A stretch of DNA of 60,468 nt, from positions 1 through 60,468 of the forward strand of contig CAYOEG010000004.1 in NCBI GenBank assembly GCA_964403155.1. Reading direction: 5' to 3'. The notes beneath the pieces are model-generated. The model ran no database searches and was not told the DNA's origin. It saw only the letters and a program-made list of their open reading frames with translations. Source of the stretch: an uncultured Candidatus Saccharibacteria bacterium (GTDB lineage Bacteria; Patescibacteriota; Dojkabacteria; SC72). Of the stretch, positions 5,460 through 43,927 are shown one piece after another. Numbering within the stretch: the stretch's first letter is position 1; each line of letters opens with the position of its first letter. Made by a program: the position numbers and the translations under genes.

Positions 5460-5861
5460 ATGAAGATTAAAAAGGGAGATACAGTAAAAATATTATACGG
5501 TAGAGACAGTGGAAAGACTGGCCCTGTAGTTGCTGTAGATCTTAAGAATCAGAAGGTTGTAGTAACGGGTATCAACTTATATAAGAGACACCTAAAGGGA
5601 GATGGCAAAACAAGAACATCCGAGATCTTAACGATAGAAAAGCCAATGTCAGTTTCAAAAGTGATGTTAGTTTGTCCATTGTGTGGAAAAACAACAAGGG
5701 TGGCCTTGAAAAGAGAAGGAGACAAAATAATGAGAATTTGTAAAAAATGTGGAAAAGTAATCGAAGCAAAGAAAGAAGAAAAAGTAGAAGTAGAAAAGAA
5801 GGAAACTAAGAAAGCTTCCACAAAGAAGAGTACTAAATCTAAGACAGAAACAAAGAAATAA
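5460..5861 (+). CDS. rplX: 50S ribosomal protein L24 (C4 zinc-ribbon variant with a Lys-rich tail)
   Basis: 133 aa with the KOW motif KKGDTVKILYGRDSGKTG. It carries CPLCGK...CKKCGK in the C-terminal hairpin and then a K/E-rich extension. Confidence 0.9.
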   Translation: MKIKKGDTVKILYGRDSGKTGPVVAVDLKNQKVVVTGINLYKRHLKGDGKTRTSEILTIEKPMSVSKVMLVCPLCGKTTRVALKREGDKIMRICKKCGKVIEAKKEEKVEVEKKETKKASTKKSTKSKTETKK

Positions 5862-5863
5862 AA

Positions 5864-6418
5864 ATGGCAAGATTAAGGGAAGAATATAATAAAAGAATAA
5901 AAGCAGAATTGATGAAAGAGGGAGACTTCAAGAATGTAATGGAAGTCCCAACCTTGAAGAAGATTGTAATCAATGTCGGGGCAGGAGAAGCTATTACAAA
6001 CAAGACTGCCTTGGAAGAGAATGCAAAGATTCTTGAGCTCATAAGTGGTCAGAAGCCAGTTATAAACAAAGCTAAGAAAGCTGTCTCGGCATTCAAATTA
6101 AGAGAAGGTATGGAAATAGGTGTATCTGTTACTTTAAGAGGTAATAGAATGTGGGAGTTCTTTGATAAGTTAACAAATGTAGTATTGCCAAGAGTCAAGG
6201 ACTTTAGAGGACTTTCTGCAAAATCATTTGATAAAGCAGGAAATTACTCGATCGGTTTGGATGATCACACAATATTTTTGGAAATAGATCCTAACAATGT
6301 TACAAAGATTAGAGGTTTGGAAGTTACAATTGTTACAACAGCTAAAGATGCGAAGTGTGGAAAAATGCTTTTAGATAAATTTGGGTTCCCTTTCATAAAA
6401 GATGTCAACAGAAGCTAA
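5864..6418 (+). CDS. rplE: 50S ribosomal protein L5
   Basis: 184 aa with a uL5 core ([15 protein letters not shown]...[17 protein letters not shown]). Confidence 0.95.
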
Positions 6419-10220: not shown

Positions 10221-10903
10221 GACGCTTCGCTGATCCGAAAACCATTGTGGTATAAGACACTATATGGGTTTTTGCAAGAAGTTCTGATTCCTATAGGCCC
10301 ACAAATCCCTAGCTATTCTCGATCTAAAGCTCTTTTTGTAAGTGTATGCTCCAATAAAAAATCATTTCGATAAATCCAGGGATAACCTTCTGGGAAATTT
10401 ATGGCAATTTTTCTCGGATTATTAATCACATATGCATATGTCAAAATGATAGCATCATCTCCAATAACCCATTTCCTTTTGTAAGTACCTTGAAATAGGT
10501 GGCCCGTTAATCCATATTTTTCATTGTAGTATTTTGTGTAGGCGGAGCAGATTATATGCATAGCCCGACTGAGGGTTTCTTTGCCAGTCTGAGATACGAG
10601 GATGTGGTAGTGGTTTGGCATCAAACAAAAACATAGCAGTTCATAACTTCGAACGTTTAGGATACTCCTTGTAAGATCGAACAAAAAGTCATAATCTTTA
10701 AGCTCATTGCCGATTTTACACCGACGATTCCCTCGTCCATAAATATGATAAATCCGGTTGATCTTAGGTGCTTTATACCCCATTCGAACAATATACTCTT
10801 TTTGTATGAAATTAATCTGAATCAAGCCATATAGTAAATAAAAATAGCACAATATCCCCAATAGTATTTTATGCTACAATGGTTCTTGTATAAGCTAAGC
10901 GTC
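10221..10903. mobile_element. Compact Y1-transposase element bounded by 53-nt imperfect inverted repeats (REP/RAYT-like), inserted between secY and adk
   Basis: The left repeat 10221-10273 and the reverse complement of 10851-10903 align without gaps at 40/53 positions by hand. The outer 33 nt match at 26/33 (GACGCTTCGCTGATCCGAAAACCATTGTGGTAT versus GACGCTTAGCTTATACAAGAACCATTGTAGCAT). The repeats enclose a single HUH transposase gene. Confidence 0.6.
10313..10783 (-). CDS. HUH/Y1 tyrosine transposase, IS200/RAYT-like (COG1943-type)
   Basis: It has the HUH motif MPNHYHILV, GHLFQGTYKRK and YVINNP with the catalytic-Tyr context. The ORF track starts at 10861. By alignment with the two paralogs (..IYRRN.YHI.NRGN..), the ATG at 10783 (MGYKAPKINRIYHIYGRGNRR) is the likelier start. 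Confidence 0.8.
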   Translation of the reverse strand: MGYKAPKINRIYHIYGRGNRRCKIGNELKDYDFLFDLTRSILNVRSYELLCFCLMPNHYHILVSQTGKETLSRAMHIICSAYTKYYNEKYGLTGHLFQGTYKRKWVIGDDAIILTYAYVINNPRKIAINFPEGYPWIYRNDFLLEHTLTKRALDRE

Positions 10904-16824: not shown

Positions 16825-17130
16825 GGGTGCAAGTATCTCTAGATGATTGCTCTTACTACTTAGTAAGGGAGGAAAGTCCGGACTCTATGTCGGTCTCGAA
16901 TATTTCGAGATAGGTGCCAGCGTGAGCTGGGAGGGAGTGATCTTTCGGATAAAAGGGCAACAGAAAGTTATACCGCCTCGTAAGAGGTAAGGGTGAAATG
17001 GTAGTGTAAGAGACTACCGGGTATTGTAGTAATACAATATCGCGTGGTAACCCCCACCTAGAGCAAGGTTTATACCGCTTAGATAGATAATCATCATAAA
17101 CAGAATTCGGCTTATTGGGTACTTGCACAC
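16825..17130 (+). ncRNA. rnpB: RNase P RNA, bacterial type A (compact)
   Basis: It has the conserved blocks GGAGGAAAGTCCGGAC (P4 5' strand), AGGGTGAAATGGTAGTGTAAGAGACTACC (CR-II/III-like) and AAACAGAATTCGGCTTAT (P4 3' strand). P1 pairs GTGCAAGTA at 16828-16836 with TACTTGCAC at 17120-17128. The minus-strand ORF 16856-17128 is therefore spurious. Confidence 0.87.
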
Positions 17131-30199: not shown

Positions 30200-31744
30200 A
30201 TGGAAGATACGCAAAGAAGTGATCTGCTCGGACAAAGACAAGTAAGATTAGACAAACTCGCAGAGCTTAAGAAGTTGGGTGTAGATCCATATCCAGCAAA
30301 GTCATACAGAAATTATTCTAATGGAGAGGTATTAAATAAATTCGGGGAATTTGAGAACAATGAGGTATGTTTAGCTGGTAGAATCACAGCATGGAGAGAG
30401 CATGGGAAATTGGTTTTTGGGAATATTCTTGATCAAAGTGGAAGTATTCAGTTGATGATTAGAGAAGCTGATTTAGTTGAGGATCTTCAAAAAGGATACT
30501 TAGGTTGGGACAAGCTATACCTTCTGGATCTTGCAGATTTCGTTGAATTGTATGGAACGATAGGGAAAACAAGGACGGGGGAAATTACCATTATGGTTAA
30601 GAATGTAAGACTTTTAACCAAAGCCTTGAGACCAATTCCACGAAAATTAGAAAACAAAGAGCAGATATTTAGGAGAAGATATTTGGATTTAGTGGTAGAT
30701 AATGAATCATTAAAGCTTTTTGAAAGGAAAGCGAAATTCTGGCAGGTACAGAGAGATTTTCTTAGAGATCATGGCTTTATGGAAGTAGAGGTGCCTGTGT
30801 TGGAAGCCGTAACTGGTGGTGCGGATGCTGCACCATTCATTACACATCATAATGCTTTGGATCAAGATTTCTATCTTAGAATCTCTACAGAACTGTATCA
30901 AAAGAGATTGATAGGTGGAGGTTATGAAAAGATATTTACATTAGGACCAAACTTCAGAAATGAAGGTATGGATGACGAGCATTTACAGGAATACTATCAG
31001 TTGGAATGGTATTGGGGTTATGCTAACTACAAAGATAATATGCAGTTGGTGCATGATCTATTCTTAGAAATTGCAAACAAGGTATATGGCAAAACTCAAT
31101 TTACAACAAGGGGACATACTTTTGATTTGGCGGATGAGTGGAAAGAAATTGACTATACTTCTGTCATTAAGGAGAGATTTGATATTGATATCTTTAATGA
31201 TTCTGAAGAGAAGATGTTGGGTGTGATTAAGGATAACAATATTGAGATGGGTGGAGAAGTGAATAGAAATAGGATGATTGATACTTTGTGGAAAGCAATT
31301 AGAGCTACTATCTCCGGTCCTGCTTTCTTGGTTAATCAGCCTAAGTTTGTTTCTCCTTTAGCAAAATCGCATCAAGATAATCCTGATTTAACAGAGAGAT
31401 TCCAGGTAGTTATCGCGGGTAGTGAACTAGGTAACGGTTATTCTGAAATCAATGATCCTCAAGATCAATTGGATAGGTTCTTGGAGCAGCAGGCTATGAG
31501 GGATAGTGGTGATTCCGAAGCTCAGATGTTGGATATTGATTTTGTAGAGATGTTAGAATATGGTATGCCTCCTGTAAGTGGTTATGGCCAGAGTGAGAGA
31601 ATTTTCTGGTTCTTAGAAGATATTTCTGGTAGAGAAGGTACTTTCTTCCCACAGATGAGGGTAGAGGTAGAGAATACTACAAAACAGATATACAAGGACA
31701 AGGCCAGATTTAAGGAGAATATTAAAAAGGAAGAGAAGAAATAA
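30200..31744 (+). CDS. lysS: Lysine--tRNA ligase, class II
   Basis: 514 aa with an OB anticodon-binding domain. Class II core: FMEVEVPVLE..GGADAAPF, YLRISTELYQKRL, FRNEGMD, ELGNGYSEINDP and PPVSGYGQSERI. Confidence 0.92.
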   Translation: MEDTQRSDLLGQRQVRLDKLAELKKLGVDPYPAKSYRNYSNGEVLNKFGEFENNEVCLAGRITAWREHGKLVFGNILDQSGSIQLMIREADLVEDLQKGYLGWDKLYLLDLADFVELYGTIGKTRTGEITIMVKNVRLLTKALRPIPRKLENKEQIFRRRYLDLVVDNESLKLFERKAKFWQVQRDFLRDHGFMEVEVPVLEAVTGGADAAPFITHHNALDQDFYLRISTELYQKRLIGGGYEKIFTLGPNFRNEGMDDEHLQEYYQLEWYWGYANYKDNMQLVHDLFLEIANKVYGKTQFTTRGHTFDLADEWKEIDYTSVIKERFDIDIFNDSEEKMLGVIKDNNIEMGGEVNRNRMIDTLWKAIRATISGPAFLVNQPKFVSPLAKSHQDNPDLTERFQVVIAGSELGNGYSEINDPQDQLDRFLEQQAMRDSGDSEAQMLDIDFVEMLEYGMPPVSGYGQSERIFWFLEDISGREGTFFPQMRVEVENTTKQIYKDKARFKENIKKEEKK

Positions 31745-31754
31745 TTATTGTAAT

Positions 31755-31800
31755 TAAAAAGGCCAACCCTCGAGAATATATTGCTATCTGAGGGTTGGCC
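31755..31800 (-). terminator. Intrinsic terminator oriented for the minus strand (ends the GC-rich RNA unit; may also stop lysS)
   Basis: A perfect 11-bp stem pairs GGCCAACCCTC (31761-31771) with GAGGGTTGGCC (31790-31800). On the minus strand the hairpin is followed by TTTTT (complement of the A-run at 31756-31760). On the plus strand no U-tract follows. Confidence 0.7.
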
Positions 31801-32014
31801 CATCTGAACCGTCTCTGTCGAGGCAAAATTTCCCCAGAATTTTGTTGATCAGCTCCGATTCAAATGTCTTTGTTTCCATACAGGTGGTTATAGTGCGGAT
31901 CATCCACAAAGTATGAAAACCATTGTTCTTACTGCAACCATATTGCTCCAATGCATTGATCCTTGTTGAAGAAGACAACGGTCTCCCATTGGCAGGCTTT
32001 ATGGTTTGATATTT

Positions 32015-32110
32015 ACTACACCCGATGGGAATTGAACCCACATATAGGGGAATGAGCCCCATACCTCACCTAGCGAGTGCAGGCAGATGCCGCGCACGGC
32101 GTTGTGTAGC
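32015..32110 (-). other. 96-nt tRNA-like domain inside the GC-rich unit
   Basis: Read on the minus strand. The closing stem is GCTACAC/GTGTAGT (7 bp, one G:U). Hairpin GCCG-TGCG-CGGC is present. The D-arm-like element is CTC-GCTAGGT-GAG. Hairpin TGGGG-CTCATTC-CCCTA has CAU at the anticodon position. The T-arm is GTGGG-TTCAATT-CCCAT. It is not a canonical cloverleaf: there are ~21 extra nt after the 5' strand and 3 extra nt (CGG) before the 3' strand. Confidence 0.3.
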
Positions 32111-32161
32111 GACACCCTAATATTTTATTTTAATGAACAAAAAAAACTGTTAGAACAGGAA

Positions 32162-32190
32162 ATTATAGTATTTGTATGATTATAGGTCAA
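32162..32190 (-). promoter_or_regulatory. Promoter cassette copy A (drives the GC-rich RNA unit)
   Basis: On the minus strand, TTGACC (32190-32185), a 17-nt spacer and TATAAT (32167-32162). It is part of a 34-nt direct repeat with copy B and overlaps the stop codon of the acidic ORF. Confidence 0.55.
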
Positions 32191-32896
32191 TGACAGCAAA
32201 GGGGTCATTCTCTTCATTCTCACAAATCCTGATGGAAGGTAAATGGGTGATTTGTTTAGAGAAATCTTCGTAATCAATAATACCTGTCGAAAATTTGTTT
32301 AAAATTTCTATTGCCAATTTGTCATTATTGAAAATTCCACTCCAAATTTCTTCCATATGATCGAAGGTAGCTTTTAAACGAAGTTTTAAATACTCTGCAA
32401 GGATTAGGTTTGGTGATGTGAGTATAGTTTTAGTATCAGCTTTTTTGTCATCTTCCTGAGTTTCAAGTATCTTGGGGTTCAAACTTATAAATTCTGCTTC
32501 GTCTTTATCAATTCCCAAATTTTCAAGTTTAAGCTCAAGGGTTTCTATTGGACGAAGTAATTGAATAATACTCCCGACTTTACGGCATGAAATATCTCTT
32601 ATTTCAGAAACAATTTGATTTAAAGTTTTCTCTACCGCAGTTGTATTTATATATGACATGTCTCCGAGAGTTTCGATATTTATAGATATTTCTGGAAACT
32701 GGGGAGCCATTTCATTCACAAAATCGTAACCGTTGAAAGAATCGACTTCACCACCATTGATATTGGGAGCAGAAGAACTATCGATTTTTGAAAGAAGTAT
32801 ATTTAAATCTGCAATTTCATCATCAGCTTTTCCGAATGCATTGGTGACTTCATCAGGAAGTGATTCTTCAAGGTATGTTATTTCTCCTTCGGACAT
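32180..32896 (-). CDS. Highly acidic hypothetical protein (238 aa), probably leaderless
   Basis: An uninterrupted 238-codon ORF with 47 D/E versus 20 K/R by hand count. I recognise no motif. A consensus-like promoter ends 8 nt upstream of the ATG and there is no SD. Confidence 0.55.
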   Translation of the reverse strand: MSEGEITYLEESLPDEVTNAFGKADDEIADLNILLSKIDSSSAPNINGGEVDSFNGYDFVNEMAPQFPEISINIETLGDMSYINTTAVEKTLNQIVSEIRDISCRKVGSIIQLLRPIETLELKLENLGIDKDEAEFISLNPKILETQEDDKKADTKTILTSPNLILAEYLKLRLKATFDHMEEIWSGIFNNDKLAIEILNKFSTGIIDYEDFSKQITHLPSIRICENEENDPFAVIDL

Positions 32897-32904
32897 GATA
32901 AGAA

Positions 32905-32933
32905 ATTATAGTATTTGTGTGATTATAGGGCAA
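32905..32933 (-). promoter_or_regulatory. Promoter cassette copy B (drives the acidic ORF)
   Basis: On the minus strand, TTGCCC (32933-32928), a 17-nt spacer and TATAAT (32910-32905). The ATG lies at 32896-32894. Confidence 0.55.
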
Positions 32934-32942
32934 TAGAAATTC

Positions 32943-32998
32943 CTCGACCCTCATCTTTAACAAATTACCTCTAAAGGTAAAAAAAGATGAGGGCCGAG
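32943..32998 (-). other. Long compound hairpin downstream of tRNA(CAG)
   Basis: A 16-bp stem pairs 32943-32958 with 32983-32998, and an inner 5-bp hairpin TACCT-TTAG-AGGTA is present. The single non-Watson-Crick position is an A:C mismatch in plus-strand RNA but a G:U pair in minus-strand RNA, which argues for a minus-strand function. No U-tract follows. Confidence 0.5.
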
Positions 32999-33000
32999 TT

Positions 33001-33037
33001 GAATTGGCGAGAGTGAGGGGGGCACCCTAACCAATTC
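33001..33037 (-). other. Hairpin immediately 3' of tRNA(CAG)
   Basis: GAATTGG (33001-33007) pairs with CCAATTC (33031-33037) across a 23-nt G/C-rich loop. It begins 3 nt after the tRNA 3' end. Confidence 0.4.
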
Positions 33038-33039
33038 TA

Positions 33040-33114
33040 GGCGAGCGAGACAGGATTCGAACCTGTGGTTTCAAGCCTCTGAAGCTTGCGTCATGTCCAC
33101 TTGACTACTCGCTC
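33040..33114 (-). tRNA. Class-I tRNA with anticodon CAG (isotype unresolved; not a canonical tRNA-Leu)
   Basis: Hand fold of the minus strand: GAGCGAG-TA-GTCA-AGTGGACA-TGAC-G-CAAGC-TTCAGAG-GCTTG-AAACC-ACAGG-TTCGAAT-CCTGT-CTCGCTC-G-CC. All stems are perfect and the universal tRNA positions are present. The variable loop is 5 nt, position 37 is A and the discriminator is G73. Confidence 0.8.
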
Positions 33115-33264
33115 TAGCGAGATAAGAAGAGGAAAGATGGTTTTAACAACCAATCCAGGTATGAAGTATACTAATCACTTTTTTGCTGGTTACTGGTGTG
33201 GCCAGAGCTCTCTCTTTTTCTGAATGTCTTCAGTTACTTATCTCTCTTTAAAAGAACAGGAGCA

Positions 33265-33293
33265 ATTTTACCAAATAATATATTATAGGTCAA
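33265..33293 (-). promoter_or_regulatory. Promoter cassette copy C (candidate promoter of the tRNA(CAG) unit)
   Basis: On the minus strand, TTGACC (33293-33288), a 17-nt spacer and TAAAAT (33270-33265). It shares the 13-mer ATTGACCTATAAT with copy A. It implies a ~140-nt leader before the tRNA. Confidence 0.45.
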
Positions 33294-33331
33294 TATCCTT
33301 TAATATATATATTTCTGATATCATTAATGAT

Positions 33332-33691
33332 ATGGAATCCATATCAGATATATTAAAAAATCTAAAACCTCAATCAGAAGAAAAAAAACAACCTCAACCA
33401 GAACTCTTCAACATGGATGAAATAAAGGATAATCCCAAGAGAATGTTTGGAGACAAACATAAATATATCTCTACTGAATATCAAGTATATGGGCTTCGTC
33501 TAGCAGGCAAATTGGGAGACACAAAGCGAACAACAATGTATATAAAGTGGGCGAAAGAGAAACCGAGAGCAATCTTAGAAATGGCTTACAGCTTTACGAT
33601 AGACTATCCGAATGCAAAAGACAAAAGTAAGATATTTATGTGGAAAGTAAAAGAACTAGAAAATGAAAGAAAGAATAAAAAAGAAGAATAA
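33332..33691 (+). CDS. Small basic hypothetical protein
   Basis: The ORF track starts at 33224, but that N-terminal part overlaps the minus-strand promoter copy C and is low-complexity. ATG 33332 (MESISDILKN...) is preferred. I recognise no family. The ATG is embedded in the near-palindrome GATATCATTAATGATATG. Confidence 0.4.
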   Translation: MESISDILKNLKPQSEEKKQPQPELFNMDEIKDNPKRMFGDKHKYISTEYQVYGLRLAGKLGDTKRTTMYIKWAKEKPRAILEMAYSFTIDYPNAKDKSKIFMWKVKELENERKNKKEE

Positions 33692-42856: not shown

Positions 42857-43876
42857 ATGATGAAGAAAATCGTATGGTTCCTAATATTACCTCTCATAGT
42901 AGGTGTCAGTATCTACTTAATATTCTTCAAGCAAAAACCAGCAACTACGGATGATACGAACAGTGATGATACACAAACCTCTGAAGAATTCGATACTGAT
43001 ACAACGACAGAAAAGGAGGAGGATGCGGATACCTCTACAGAAGAAAATGAAGAGACACAAACAATCACAGGATTCTCAACGGAATCTCAGACAATTGGAG
43101 CGGCTTCTTCATCAAAATATACGATAGAGGAGGTTAGCAATACTTCCCATACCGACTATCACGAATTTGTATTTACACTTTCGTCAACAAGTACTGATGA
43201 ACCTAATGTCATAGCTGAATACAAAAGTAGCCTTGGTGTCATAAGGTTGGATTTCAATCAGATTGAAAAAGATGACAGCGGAATTGGATATCAAAAAGAA
43301 GTCAGTATAAACAAAGAAGGAATCTCAAGACTGTATCACAATGTATCTTCGGATCAGACAGAGGAATTGTATGACATAGGTGTTACAAAAGAGACAGTAT
43401 TCAAGTTGATGTCAGAGAAAGTAGGTGACAATTGGGAGATTACGATATATGTCCAATATCCAGGAGAATCTACAAGTACTGTGGACTCTGGAAGTACCGA
43501 TTTTAGTACTCAGGCACAATCAGTTACAGGTGTTGATGCTTCAAAAGGTGCGGCAATTAGTTCATATACATATGGTATTAGTGGAGGAGTTTTGAAGTTT
43601 GTCTGGAACGTAAGTAGTACAGACACGAATCCAATCCCAAGTGTAACTGCTGCGTACGATTCTGAAAATCATTTAGTTGTTACATTCACAAGTTTAAAGA
43701 CAGATAAGGTATATCTTGCAGTTGATGGTATTTCATTACCTGGTAGCTTAGCTATGCAGACAGAGAAACCTGGGGAATCAACTATATATACCATAGGTGG
43801 ATTCTCAGCAAAAGCAGAATATAAATTAAGTGCAAGCACAGGCCCAAATCAGGTAATTTTAGAAATTGAATTATGA
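42857..43876 (+). CDS. Secreted or anchored hypothetical protein with a T/D/E-rich linker
   Basis: 339 aa with an N-terminal signal or anchor, an acidic Thr-rich low-complexity linker and a beta-rich body. I recognise no family. Confidence 0.45.
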   Translation: MMKKIVWFLILPLIVGVSIYLIFFKQKPATTDDTNSDDTQTSEEFDTDTTTEKEEDADTSTEENEETQTITGFSTESQTIGAASSSKYTIEEVSNTSHTDYHEFVFTLSSTSTDEPNVIAEYKSSLGVIRLDFNQIEKDDSGIGYQKEVSINKEGISRLYHNVSSDQTEELYDIGVTKETVFKLMSEKVGDNWEITIYVQYPGESTSTVDSGSTDFSTQAQSVTGVDASKGAAISSYTYGISGGVLKFVWNVSSTDTNPIPSVTAAYDSENHLVVTFTSLKTDKVYLAVDGISLPGSLAMQTEKPGESTIYTIGGFSAKAEYKLSASTGPNQVILEIEL

Positions 43877-43927
43877 CGCTTCGCTTCGATGTGAAGCCTT
43901 ATTGTATCAATGACTATATGGGTTTTT
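43875..43927 (+). repeat. Solo copy of the 53-nt repeat that bounds the secY-adk transposase element
   Basis: It has the same length and the same ends as 10221-10273: GACGCTTCGCT at the 5' end and ACTATATGGGTTTTT at the 3' end are identical, and 12 of the 27 internal nt match. Like the copy after secY, it starts at or just after a plus-strand stop codon. Confidence 0.5.

Follow-up and report, generated by a model that had tools for sequence, protein, structure and literature searches.

The DNA considered here is a 60,468-nt stretch (the window; contig CAYOEG010000004.1 of assembly GCA_964403155.1) deposited under the name of an uncultured Candidatus Saccharibacteria bacterium. Its lysyl-tRNA synthetase (LysRS) places the window in Candidatus Dojkabacteria (WS6), within the candidate phyla radiation (CPR), and the closest genomes are 93-94% identical. 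Between the lysS gene (30200-31744) and an open reading frame (ORF) of 238 amino acids lies a predicted transcription unit of about 400 nt, read on the minus strand from promoter to terminator, which carries a tRNA-like module in its 5' part. We compared this unit with 80 related Dojkabacteria/CPR loci; L-numbers designate individual loci. The unit and the ORFs that overlap or adjoin it comprise the following features:

32190-32162, minus strand: sigma-70-type promoter TTGACC-17-TATAAT, 11/12 match
32118-32154, minus strand: A/U-rich 5' leader, its start near 32154 deduced from the -10 box
32085-32117, minus strand: GC-rich 5' hairpin of 33 nt, a 9-bp stem GGGUGUCGC/GCGGCAUCU around a small CAC/GUG stem, present in both the minimum-energy and the centroid fold
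32016-32082, minus strand: tRNA-like module lacking a D arm, as given by Rfam, ARAGORN and RNAfold
32082-32074/32024-32016, minus strand: acceptor-like stem of 9 bp, CUGCACUCG/CGGGUGUAG
32073-32065, minus strand: linker of 9 nt, a D-loop remnant, CUAGGUGAG
32064-32057/32049-32042, minus strand: anticodon-like stem of 8 bp, GUAUGGGG/CCCUAUAU
32056-32050, minus strand: anticodon-like loop CUCAUUC with U33, CAU at 34-36 and U at 37
32041-32025, minus strand: T arm GUGGG-UUCAAUU-CCCAU, directly followed by CGGGUGUAG, which pairs with 32082-32074
31801-32015, minus strand: 3' body of about 215 nt without homologue, with an 11-bp stem (31866-31856/31811-31801) just upstream of the terminator
31755-31800, minus strand: intrinsic terminator, a 14-bp hairpin GGCCAACCCUC...GAGGGUUGGCC at 31800-31761 followed by UUUUU
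31784-32062, minus strand: ORF of 92 amino acids, not regarded as a gene, which overlaps with the tRNA-like module, 3' body and terminator arm
32180-32896, minus strand: ORF of 238 amino acids, an acidic, all-helical orphan protein

A preliminary description of this stretch, made from the letters alone, had proposed a promoter-to-terminator unit with a GC-rich core and an embedded 96-nt tRNA-like domain of four arms. We found the TTGACC-17-TATAAT promoter at 32190-32162 and the terminator hairpin with its U run just as they had been described, and the count of 31 G/C among the 45 nt at 32073-32117 was reproduced; the whole unit has a GC content of 43.6% compared with 35.5% for the window. With both hexamers, a 17-nt spacing, a hairpin followed by a U run and conservation at both ends, the segment has the composition of a putative sigma-70/intrinsic-terminator transcription unit. 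A distance of 10 nt separates the terminator hairpin from the stop codon of lysS, which is convergent with the unit; the hairpin was passed over by a terminator scanner only because its loop is longer than 8 nt. Promoter matches of 11/12 occurred five times in the window, compared with 4.6 expected in shuffled sequences.

Both ends of the unit have relatives at the variable site next to lysS, which we refer to as the hot spot. The unit promoter is contained in a 33-nt direct repeat (32159-32191) which is a 94% copy of the promoter of the 238-aa ORF (32902-32934) at a spacing of 743 nt. The stop codon of this ORF falls within the -35 region of the unit promoter, inside the repeat, and its last four codons are encoded by the repeat. 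A module consisting of the -10 box and CCTGTTC was found at the hot spot only (at 33270 and 32167 in the window as well as in L004 and L032). Moreover, terminator hairpins homologous to that of the unit are present in L004 (5930-5885) and L003 (5586-5548); the three share GGCCAAYYCU…AGRRUUGGCC and show compensatory CC/GG, UC/GA and UU/AA pairs. These comparisons establish that the predicted promoter and terminator are copies of hot-spot modules, and that the putative unit was assembled from duplicated local modules.

Concerning the tRNA-like part, the Rfam tRNA model RF00005 gave a score of 19.8 bits (E=0.32 for 1 kb searched) and aligned to 32080-32017 by skipping the D arm, leaving 7 nt where the D arm has 13. 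ARAGORN reported a tRNA-Met at 32081-32016 at the 80% threshold and a D-armless mitochondrial tRNA-Met in mitochondrial mode, while the module was not called at default settings. RNAfold predicted an independent 33-nt hairpin followed by a tRNA-like fold with an unpaired linker of 9 nt. Compared with members of RF00005, the module scores below gathering level and has neither a four-arm cloverleaf with a D stem of 3-4 bp nor a purine at position 37, whereas the 5-bp T stem with a UUCRANY loop directly before the acceptor 3' strand is present. The pyrimidine at position 37 had already been pointed out in the preliminary description and is the U of the CUCAUUC loop. Three G-C pairs close the CAU loop in the anticodon-like stem; three consecutive G-C pairs in the anticodon stem are a hallmark of initiator tRNAs. 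The analysis shows that the tRNA-like domain keeps the acceptor/T-arm stack, the T loop and an anticodon-like arm, and that it has lost the D stem and carries a pyrimidine at 37. Taken singly, the promoter, the tRNA score and the domain fold are not above chance; it is the comparative evidence, namely the copies of hot-spot modules and the conservation in a second strain, that lifts the unit above chance.

This second strain, L088, is the sole other one in which the unit was found. It is represented by a contig of 912 nt from another sample that carries the sole close homologue of the 238-aa ORF (85% amino acid identity), runs through the promoter into the unit and ends in the T loop. Between the window and L088, 90 of the 717 sites of the ORF differ, namely 18, 17 and 55 at codon positions 1, 2 and 3 (239 sites each), and 19 of the 68 four-fold sites are changed. 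Such a distribution over the codon positions shows that purifying selection acts on the ORF and that it is a real gene. The unit promoter and leader differ at only 1 of 56 sites: one base is different in the promoter, and the leader has no substitution and a single 5-nt indel. In the hairpin and the tRNA-like part 4 of 88 sites differ, together with a 1-nt deletion. The first ~145 nt of the unit consequently show 3.5% difference (5/144) compared with 23% at the third codon positions of the ORF (Fisher p=6.6e-8; p=5.6e-5 against the four-fold sites), and every 144-nt window of the ORF has at least 11 differences. The step from high to low divergence falls at the unit promoter.

The nature of the five changes in L088 is informative as well. 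G32100A is located in the loop of the 5' hairpin and G32090A converts a U·G into a U-A pair, by which the hairpin energy changes from -15.0 to -15.6 kcal/mol. G32064A and G32041A both convert a G·U into an A-U pair in the tRNA-like module, and the deletion of G32067 affects the linker. All five fit the fold without a D arm, whose energy is unchanged or slightly better. Based on this comparison, the 5' part of the unit is probably under constraint.

A candidate for a more distant homologue was found in L003, where the last unit before lysS (L003b) occupies the position equal to that of the window unit. Its tRNA-like element scores 41.2 bits against RF00005, and it has the leader motif of the window unit (CUAACAGUUUUUUUUGU), the two sharing CUAACARU..UUUUUGU. 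L003b also has an anticodon-like loop with a pyrimidine at 37 (CUCGUCC), the same variable region AUAU as in the window and a T arm GUGGG-UUCGAUU-CCCAU. Among the five inner pairs of the anticodon stem, three have undergone double, pair-preserving changes between L003b and the window, as read from the sequences; when RNAalifold was applied to three sequences, the anticodon arms came out misaligned and only the T arm was recovered. L003b was the best nhmmer match of the 5' part of the unit among the 80 loci. These similarities are suggestive of a distant homologue of the unit.

The hot spot itself provides the context for these observations. Most of the 80 related loci carry a conserved small gene, p155, and two ABC-2 permease genes after lysS, at a distance of 10-100 bp. 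Within the clade of the window the gap between lysS and p155 amounts to 0.3-2 kb, and its content is largely non-homologous between lineages. The closest relatives have, in place of window positions 31745-33240, about 300 bp with one tRNA on the minus strand, which is different each time. The following tRNAs were identified at this site:

Window, 33114-33040, minus strand: tRNA(CAG), 65 bits
L001: tRNA-Arg(UCG)
L002, L096 and L097: tRNA-Thr(GGU)
L005: tRNA-Gln(UUG)
L054: tRNA-Val(CAC) and a 76%-identical duplicate (5804-5881) with an oversized anticodon loop of 8-9 nt
L032, 5685-5759: an odd tRNA of 29.8 bits with an irregular anticodon loop
L090, 4495-4870 including flanks: tRNA-Glu(UUC), in a genome whose LysRS falls in the 90% cluster of the window
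L093 (more distant), 1407-1482 and 1505-1580: tandem tRNA(CUA), of amber-suppressor type, of 67.7 bits and tRNA(AUC), with A34, of 66.5 bits
L003, 5901-5972: an Ile-GAU-like tRNA with the T loop UGUAAAC

Genomes with at least 90% identical LysRS thus differ in their hot-spot tRNA, as is the case for the window (CAG), L090, L096/L097, L001 and L032. Near-identical genomes carry the anticodons CAG, UUC, GGU and UCG; CUA, AUC with A34 and duplicates with loops of 8-9 nt are found in more distant ones. The tRNA(CAG) of the window would nominally be a tRNA-Leu, and it has a class-I body with a variable region of 5 nt, not the long arm of bacterial tRNA-Leu. This tRNA and the tRNA-Glu(UUC) of L090 are framed by the same promoter and leader (…TCTTCTTATCTCGCT) and the same trailer (CCTAGARTTTGGTTAGGGTGCCCCCCTCAC), the flanks extending over 32940-33300. 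The shared flanks around different tRNAs imply that the tRNA body was exchanged or diverged while the flanks were kept. The backbones of the UCG, GGU and AUC tRNAs of L001, L002 and L093 are 68-75% shared, and L003, L004 and L032 have degenerate tRNA-like pieces at this position. In metagenome reads, co-occurring strains depart from the window at most about 12 nt from the lysS stop codon (breakpoints 31732, 31738 and 31743). No integrase or phage genes were found adjacent to the slot. Taken together, the gene orders and sequences compared here mark the lysS/p155 site as a hot spot which takes up accessory tRNAs as well as other cargo and behaves like a small variable island.

In distant Dojkabacteria the lysS/p155 gap holds protein genes (L006/L008, 5540-6600; L025, 5402-6785; L009/L017). 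Their products include a YhcG PDDEXK nuclease (E 5e-57), one ParB_N-like and one peptidase-MA-like protein, both matches being weak and below the Pfam cut-off, and an orphan of 419 amino acids. On the p155 side of the gap, the listed ORF of 155 amino acids probably begins at an internal ATG at 33332: it is conserved in relatives only from about residue 37, and the upstream 108 nt (33224-33331, plus strand) hold the minus-strand hot-spot promoter.

The 238-aa ORF upstream of the unit belongs to a tiny family (P0001-P0006, 25-85% identity) whose members are mostly located at this site. The ATG of the ORF follows the -10 box at 8 nt, so that the mRNA looks leaderless. The protein had no match in Pfam (including Ro/TROVE), PHROG, PADLOC or the PDB, and its AlphaFold model was of low confidence (pLDDT, the predicted local distance difference test, of 55) and was set aside. 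Homologues of the ORF directly abut lysS without the unit in L090/L092 (54% identity) and L093 (31%). On these grounds we rejected a two-gene module made up of this protein and the RNA. The 33-nt repeats (32159-32191/32902-32934) bracket the 238-aa ORF, an arrangement that would be consistent with insertion of the ORF cassette between a hot-spot promoter and the RNA unit, by recombination through the promoter copies.

The 3' body of the unit differs from the 5' part in that no similarity to its ~215 nt was found in the 80 related loci or in phages, plasmids and metagenome contigs. Its predicted fold is modest (z=-2.0; 6 of 200 shuffles were as good), and the z-score of -4.0 obtained for the whole unit includes the terminator. 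In the strains of run X5 that keep the terminator a different sequence stands in place of the 3' body, and the same holds for L004, which suggests variable cargo between conserved ends. At 31976-31991 on the minus strand, about 25 nt past the tRNA-like module, a weak terminator-like hairpin of 6 bp (CAAUGG-GAGA-CCGUUG, then UCUUCUUC) could end a transcript of ~180 nt; such a site is at chance level (1 found, 1.5 expected).

Searches for known RNA families with Rfam 15 covered the whole window at the gathering threshold and 31500-32500 at E≤10. Apart from the tRNA model, none of the families matched the unit at either level, with ROOL, GOLLD, OLE, raiA, HEARO, RNase P RNA, signal recognition particle (SRP) RNA, 6S RNA, transfer-messenger RNA (tmRNA, one-piece or permuted) and YrlA among those covered, in agreement with the preliminary description, which had been unable to match the segment to tmRNA, SRP RNA, 6S or RNase P. 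For tmRNA, ARAGORN made no call at default settings and only an implausible one (32408-33121) at the 70% threshold. By blastn and nhmmer the unit was absent from the 80 related loci, in which only the L004 terminator and the weak L003b match were retrieved. There was no unit match in phage and plasmid collections (blastn in 'distant' mode), no hit in IMG/VR scans with a 23-mer of T arm and acceptor and with the GC-rich core, and none in two JGI metagenome scans with an anticodon-arm plus T-arm pattern and with a terminator pattern. Four bioreactor runs carry the identical strain.

Several candidate relationships were considered and discarded. The 21-mer ATATGTGGGTTCRATTCCCAT was not usable as a diagnostic sequence since it matched only ordinary phage tRNAs (Cys, Met, Gly, Ser), and the occurrence of UUAGGGUG in both the unit and the tRNA trailer is no evidence of homology, an 8-mer match being expected by chance at that scale. 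A remnant of att-site integration was rejected because the 3' half of the tRNA-like module shares only GGUUC-AAUCC with the upstream tRNA(CAG). Finally, a tRNA with an intron in the D arm is contradicted by the D stem broken in L088, and we know of no bacterial mechanism for removing such an intron.

Elsewhere in the window, a bacterial RNase P RNA of type A is encoded on the plus strand at 16829-17130 (302 nt compared with 367 model positions, 154.7 bits), with several peripheral helices shortened or missing. A pair of 53-nt sequences on the plus strand (10221-10273 and 43875-43927, 72% identical, with the ends GACGCTTCGC…ACTATATGGGTTTTT) may represent a repeated terminator or a small element.

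In our best reading of these data, the unit would be a strain-restricted, non-decoding, tRNA-derived non-coding RNA gene, and a paralogue of the accessory-tRNA transcription units in the lysS-p155/ABC-2 slot of Candidatus Dojkabacteria. That it is a functional RNA gene of tRNA origin we rate at slightly better than even chances. Because it has no D arm and no purine at 37, the product would presumably be unable to act as a decoding tRNA. The module would most likely be a mimic recognised by the tRNA-end enzymes RNase P, RNase Z and the CCA-adding enzyme. These enzymes would cut the primary transcript, and also read-through from the 238-aa gene, at the borders of the module, so that a small tRNA-like RNA and, apart from it, a 3' RNA of ~260 nt would be released or stabilised. 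The tRNA-like product might in addition serve some other purpose and, for instance, divert tRNA-targeting factors as a decoy.

Other explanations have to be weighed against this reading. The four-arm model of the preliminary description, in which a single ornate ~400-nt RNA contains a 96-nt domain that has GCUACAC/GUGUAGU as its closing stem and includes a UNCG hairpin as an insertion and a D arm of 3 bp, is hardly credible in light of the folding results. All of its strings are indeed in the sequence (GCTACAC/GTGTAGT, GCCG-TGCG-CGGC, CTC-GCTAGGT-GAG, the CUCAUUC hairpin and GTGGG-TTCAATT-CCCAT), and L003b likewise has three unpaired nt (GAA, as compared with CGG in the window) between the T stem and the outer acceptor-like stem. 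However, the four-arm fold reaches only -27.2 kcal/mol compared with -40.0 kcal/mol for the minimum-energy fold of the same stretch, and it was recovered by none of the tools: the Rfam tRNA model, ARAGORN and RNAfold gave the fold of 64-69 nt without a D arm (32082-32016) together with the separate hairpin 32117-32085. Three of the five changes in L088 destroy the UNCG hairpin and the D stem, as both outer GCCG/CGGC pairs become mismatches (A·C and C·A) and the strand GAG of the sole possible 3-bp D stem (CUC/GAG) is lost by the 1-nt deletion. Thus, both the energies and the L088 changes contradict the outer 7-bp stem, the UNCG hairpin and the D arm, and the idea of an ornate RNA spanning all 400 nt does not agree with a 3' portion that is without homologue and folds at the modest level given above. 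A coding function, by which the unit would encode a small protein (the 92-aa ORF, a 31-aa ORF in the same frame, METKTFESELINKILGKFCLDRDGSDGPTLR, or a 29-aa ORF MGDRCLL...) and the tRNA-like part would be its 5' untranslated region, is very improbable too. In its favour, the unit contains a frame of 92 open codons, of which the last 31 residues have a helix-like appearance; the neighbouring ORF, moreover, seems to be leaderless, and in this organism the lack of a Shine-Dalgarno sequence would therefore not be disqualifying. The 92-aa ORF has, however, no homologue among 5.8 billion proteins and is not present among them as a called gene either; Pfam and PHROG gave no match, and tblastn retrieved nothing from the 80 related loci. 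It starts inside the anticodon-like stem and ends inside the terminator stem, and its composition (4 Cys, Trp, His) is atypical for this AT-rich genome. The Shine-Dalgarno-like GGUGAGG lies only 1 nt from its ATG and is destroyed in L088. The preliminary description had likewise seen no convincing ORF in the ~215 nt, and neither protein-like conservation of the 92-aa ORF nor a clean Rfam hit, two of the outcomes it had named as refuting its proposal, was encountered. We also consider it improbable, if a little less so, that the unit is a 3' untranslated extension of the 238-aa mRNA, with the tRNA-like fold as a punctuation or stability element and the internal promoter as an incidental feature. 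No terminator-like site was found between 32896 and 32160, the ORF stop codon lies inside the repeat, and ORF and unit co-occur in both strains. Opposed to this are the ORF homologues of L090/L092 and L093 that abut lysS without the unit, the existence of an L003b-type unit without the 238-aa ORF, and the promoter copy itself, which keeps both hexamers and the 17-nt spacing in the window and L088, whereas the upstream copy has diverged at 7 of 38 positions.

The alternative that deserves most attention is a neutral relic, i.e. a dying accessory-tRNA pseudogene with spacer left from cassette gain and loss, in which promoter and terminator are leftovers and the RNA is functionless. We regard this as unlikely, though it agrees with the complete turnover of hot-spot content among genomes with at least 90% identical LysRS, with the degenerate tRNA-like pieces of L003, L004 and L032, with the absence of the unit from the 80 related loci and all public collections searched, with the unique 3' 215 nt and with a tRNA score below threshold. 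It does not readily account for the 5' 144 nt, which differ by 3.5% compared with 23-28% at near-neutral sites of the neighbouring gene, for five L088 changes that all preserve the predicted stems, or for a divergence boundary at the promoter. The same evidence bears on the earlier proposal of a decayed tRNA-Met/Ile gene captured in a new transcript, which came closest among those made: derivation from a tRNA, location in a tRNA slot and a duplicated local promoter are borne out, whereas decay is an incomplete account of a 5' portion of ~145 nt far more conserved between two strains than the neutral sites of the neighbouring gene. The other proposal, a tRNA mimic fused to a larger RNA, is nearer to the constraint seen in this portion. 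Overall, the preliminary observation was confirmed in part, and its interpretation is partly supported.

Several points weigh against a functional RNA gene of tRNA origin. The RF00005 score of 19.8 bits is under the gathering threshold of 29 bits, and the fold of the 111-nt domain (z=-1.5) is not significantly better than those of shuffled sequences. The L003b match has E=2 in the 1.3 Mb of the 80 loci and, when the 19-kb hot-spot set is searched, E=0.03. Its T arm is of a generic type: phage tRNAs with four different identities, all of them ordinary, contain the same 21-mer. The conservation was measured between two strains only, in a comparison that runs from the promoter to the T loop and so stops short of the acceptor 3' strand, the 3' body and the terminator, and the low divergence could also reflect a recent recombination tract starting at the end of the ORF instead of selection. 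Furthermore, very close relatives are without the unit, which is to say that it is dispensable. A search for RNA-seq runs holding this stretch found none, and the processing and mimicry mechanism outlined above is entirely inferred.

Comparison with known systems helps to define what the module is. Like canonical bacterial tRNAs (RF00005), among which the CAU types are the initiator tRNA-fMet, the elongator Met and Ile2, it has an acceptor/T-arm stack, a 5-bp T stem with a UUCAAUU loop, U33, CAU at 34-36 and three G-C pairs closing the anticodon stem, and it is located where relatives carry real tRNA genes. In contrast to them, it has no D stem (about 7 nt are missing), carries U at 37 and a G·U at 1-72, lies ~70 nt from the 5' end of a predicted transcript of ~400 nt and has no encoded CCA. 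Embedded arrangements are known from other RNAs: mascRNA at the 3' end of MALAT1/MEN-beta is a tRNA-like processing module in a longer transcript, and 3'ETS-leuZ is an example of the bacterial sRNAs derived from tRNA-linked spacers. By analogy with mascRNA-type modules, the unit may be a tRNA-shaped element in a longer non-coding transcript that is possibly excised by RNase P/RNase Z, which would set the ends of the RNAs on either side; those examples are eukaryotic or involve genuine tRNAs, whereas here a degenerate tRNA of a CPR bacterium is concerned. The Rfam model mascRNA-menRNA gave no hit in the unit (31500-32500, E≤10). With YrlA (RF02553) and the tRNA-like domain of tmRNA the module shares the character of a non-decoding mimic of a partial tRNA with T arm and acceptor stack, and the tmRNA domain lacks a D stem as well. 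Unlike in tmRNA, however, the anticodon-like arm is a closed hairpin and not a long connecting helix, and there is no tag reading frame; unlike for YrlA, there was no RF02553 hit at E≤10 and there is no Ro/TROVE (rsr) gene in the neighbourhood.

The hot spot can be compared with the tRNA arrays of mycobacteria and phages and with the 'allo-tRNAs' with odd cloverleaves and anticodons that have been found in metagenomes. Similar to these, it is a variable site with extra tRNAs of changing identity, suppressor-type and odd ones included. Unlike mobile tRNA arrays, it is a single slot where promoter, leader and trailer are conserved and the exchange concerns the tRNA body, and the unit is not a usable tRNA. 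We speculate that the lysS/p155 slot is a dedicated, fast-diversifying 'tRNA cassette' site and the unit a neo-functionalised, selected mimic without a D arm, acting for example as a decoy or inhibitor where tRNAs are contested with phage or competitor tRNases, or as a processing handle for variable 3' RNA cargo; this combined proposal is rather doubtful at present.

Taken alone, the unit adds only modestly to what is known of tRNA mimics and tRNA pseudogenes, even though a tRNA-like RNA with neither a D arm nor a purine at 37 would be unusual if maintained in a bacterium. The hot spot is more unusual than the unit: accessory tRNAs are swapped there between close CPR relatives while the flanks are conserved, and more distant relatives have suppressor-type and structurally odd ones. 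If this pattern reflects selection, the site would be a tractable example of tRNA-centred conflict or of codon-usage tuning in minimal genomes.

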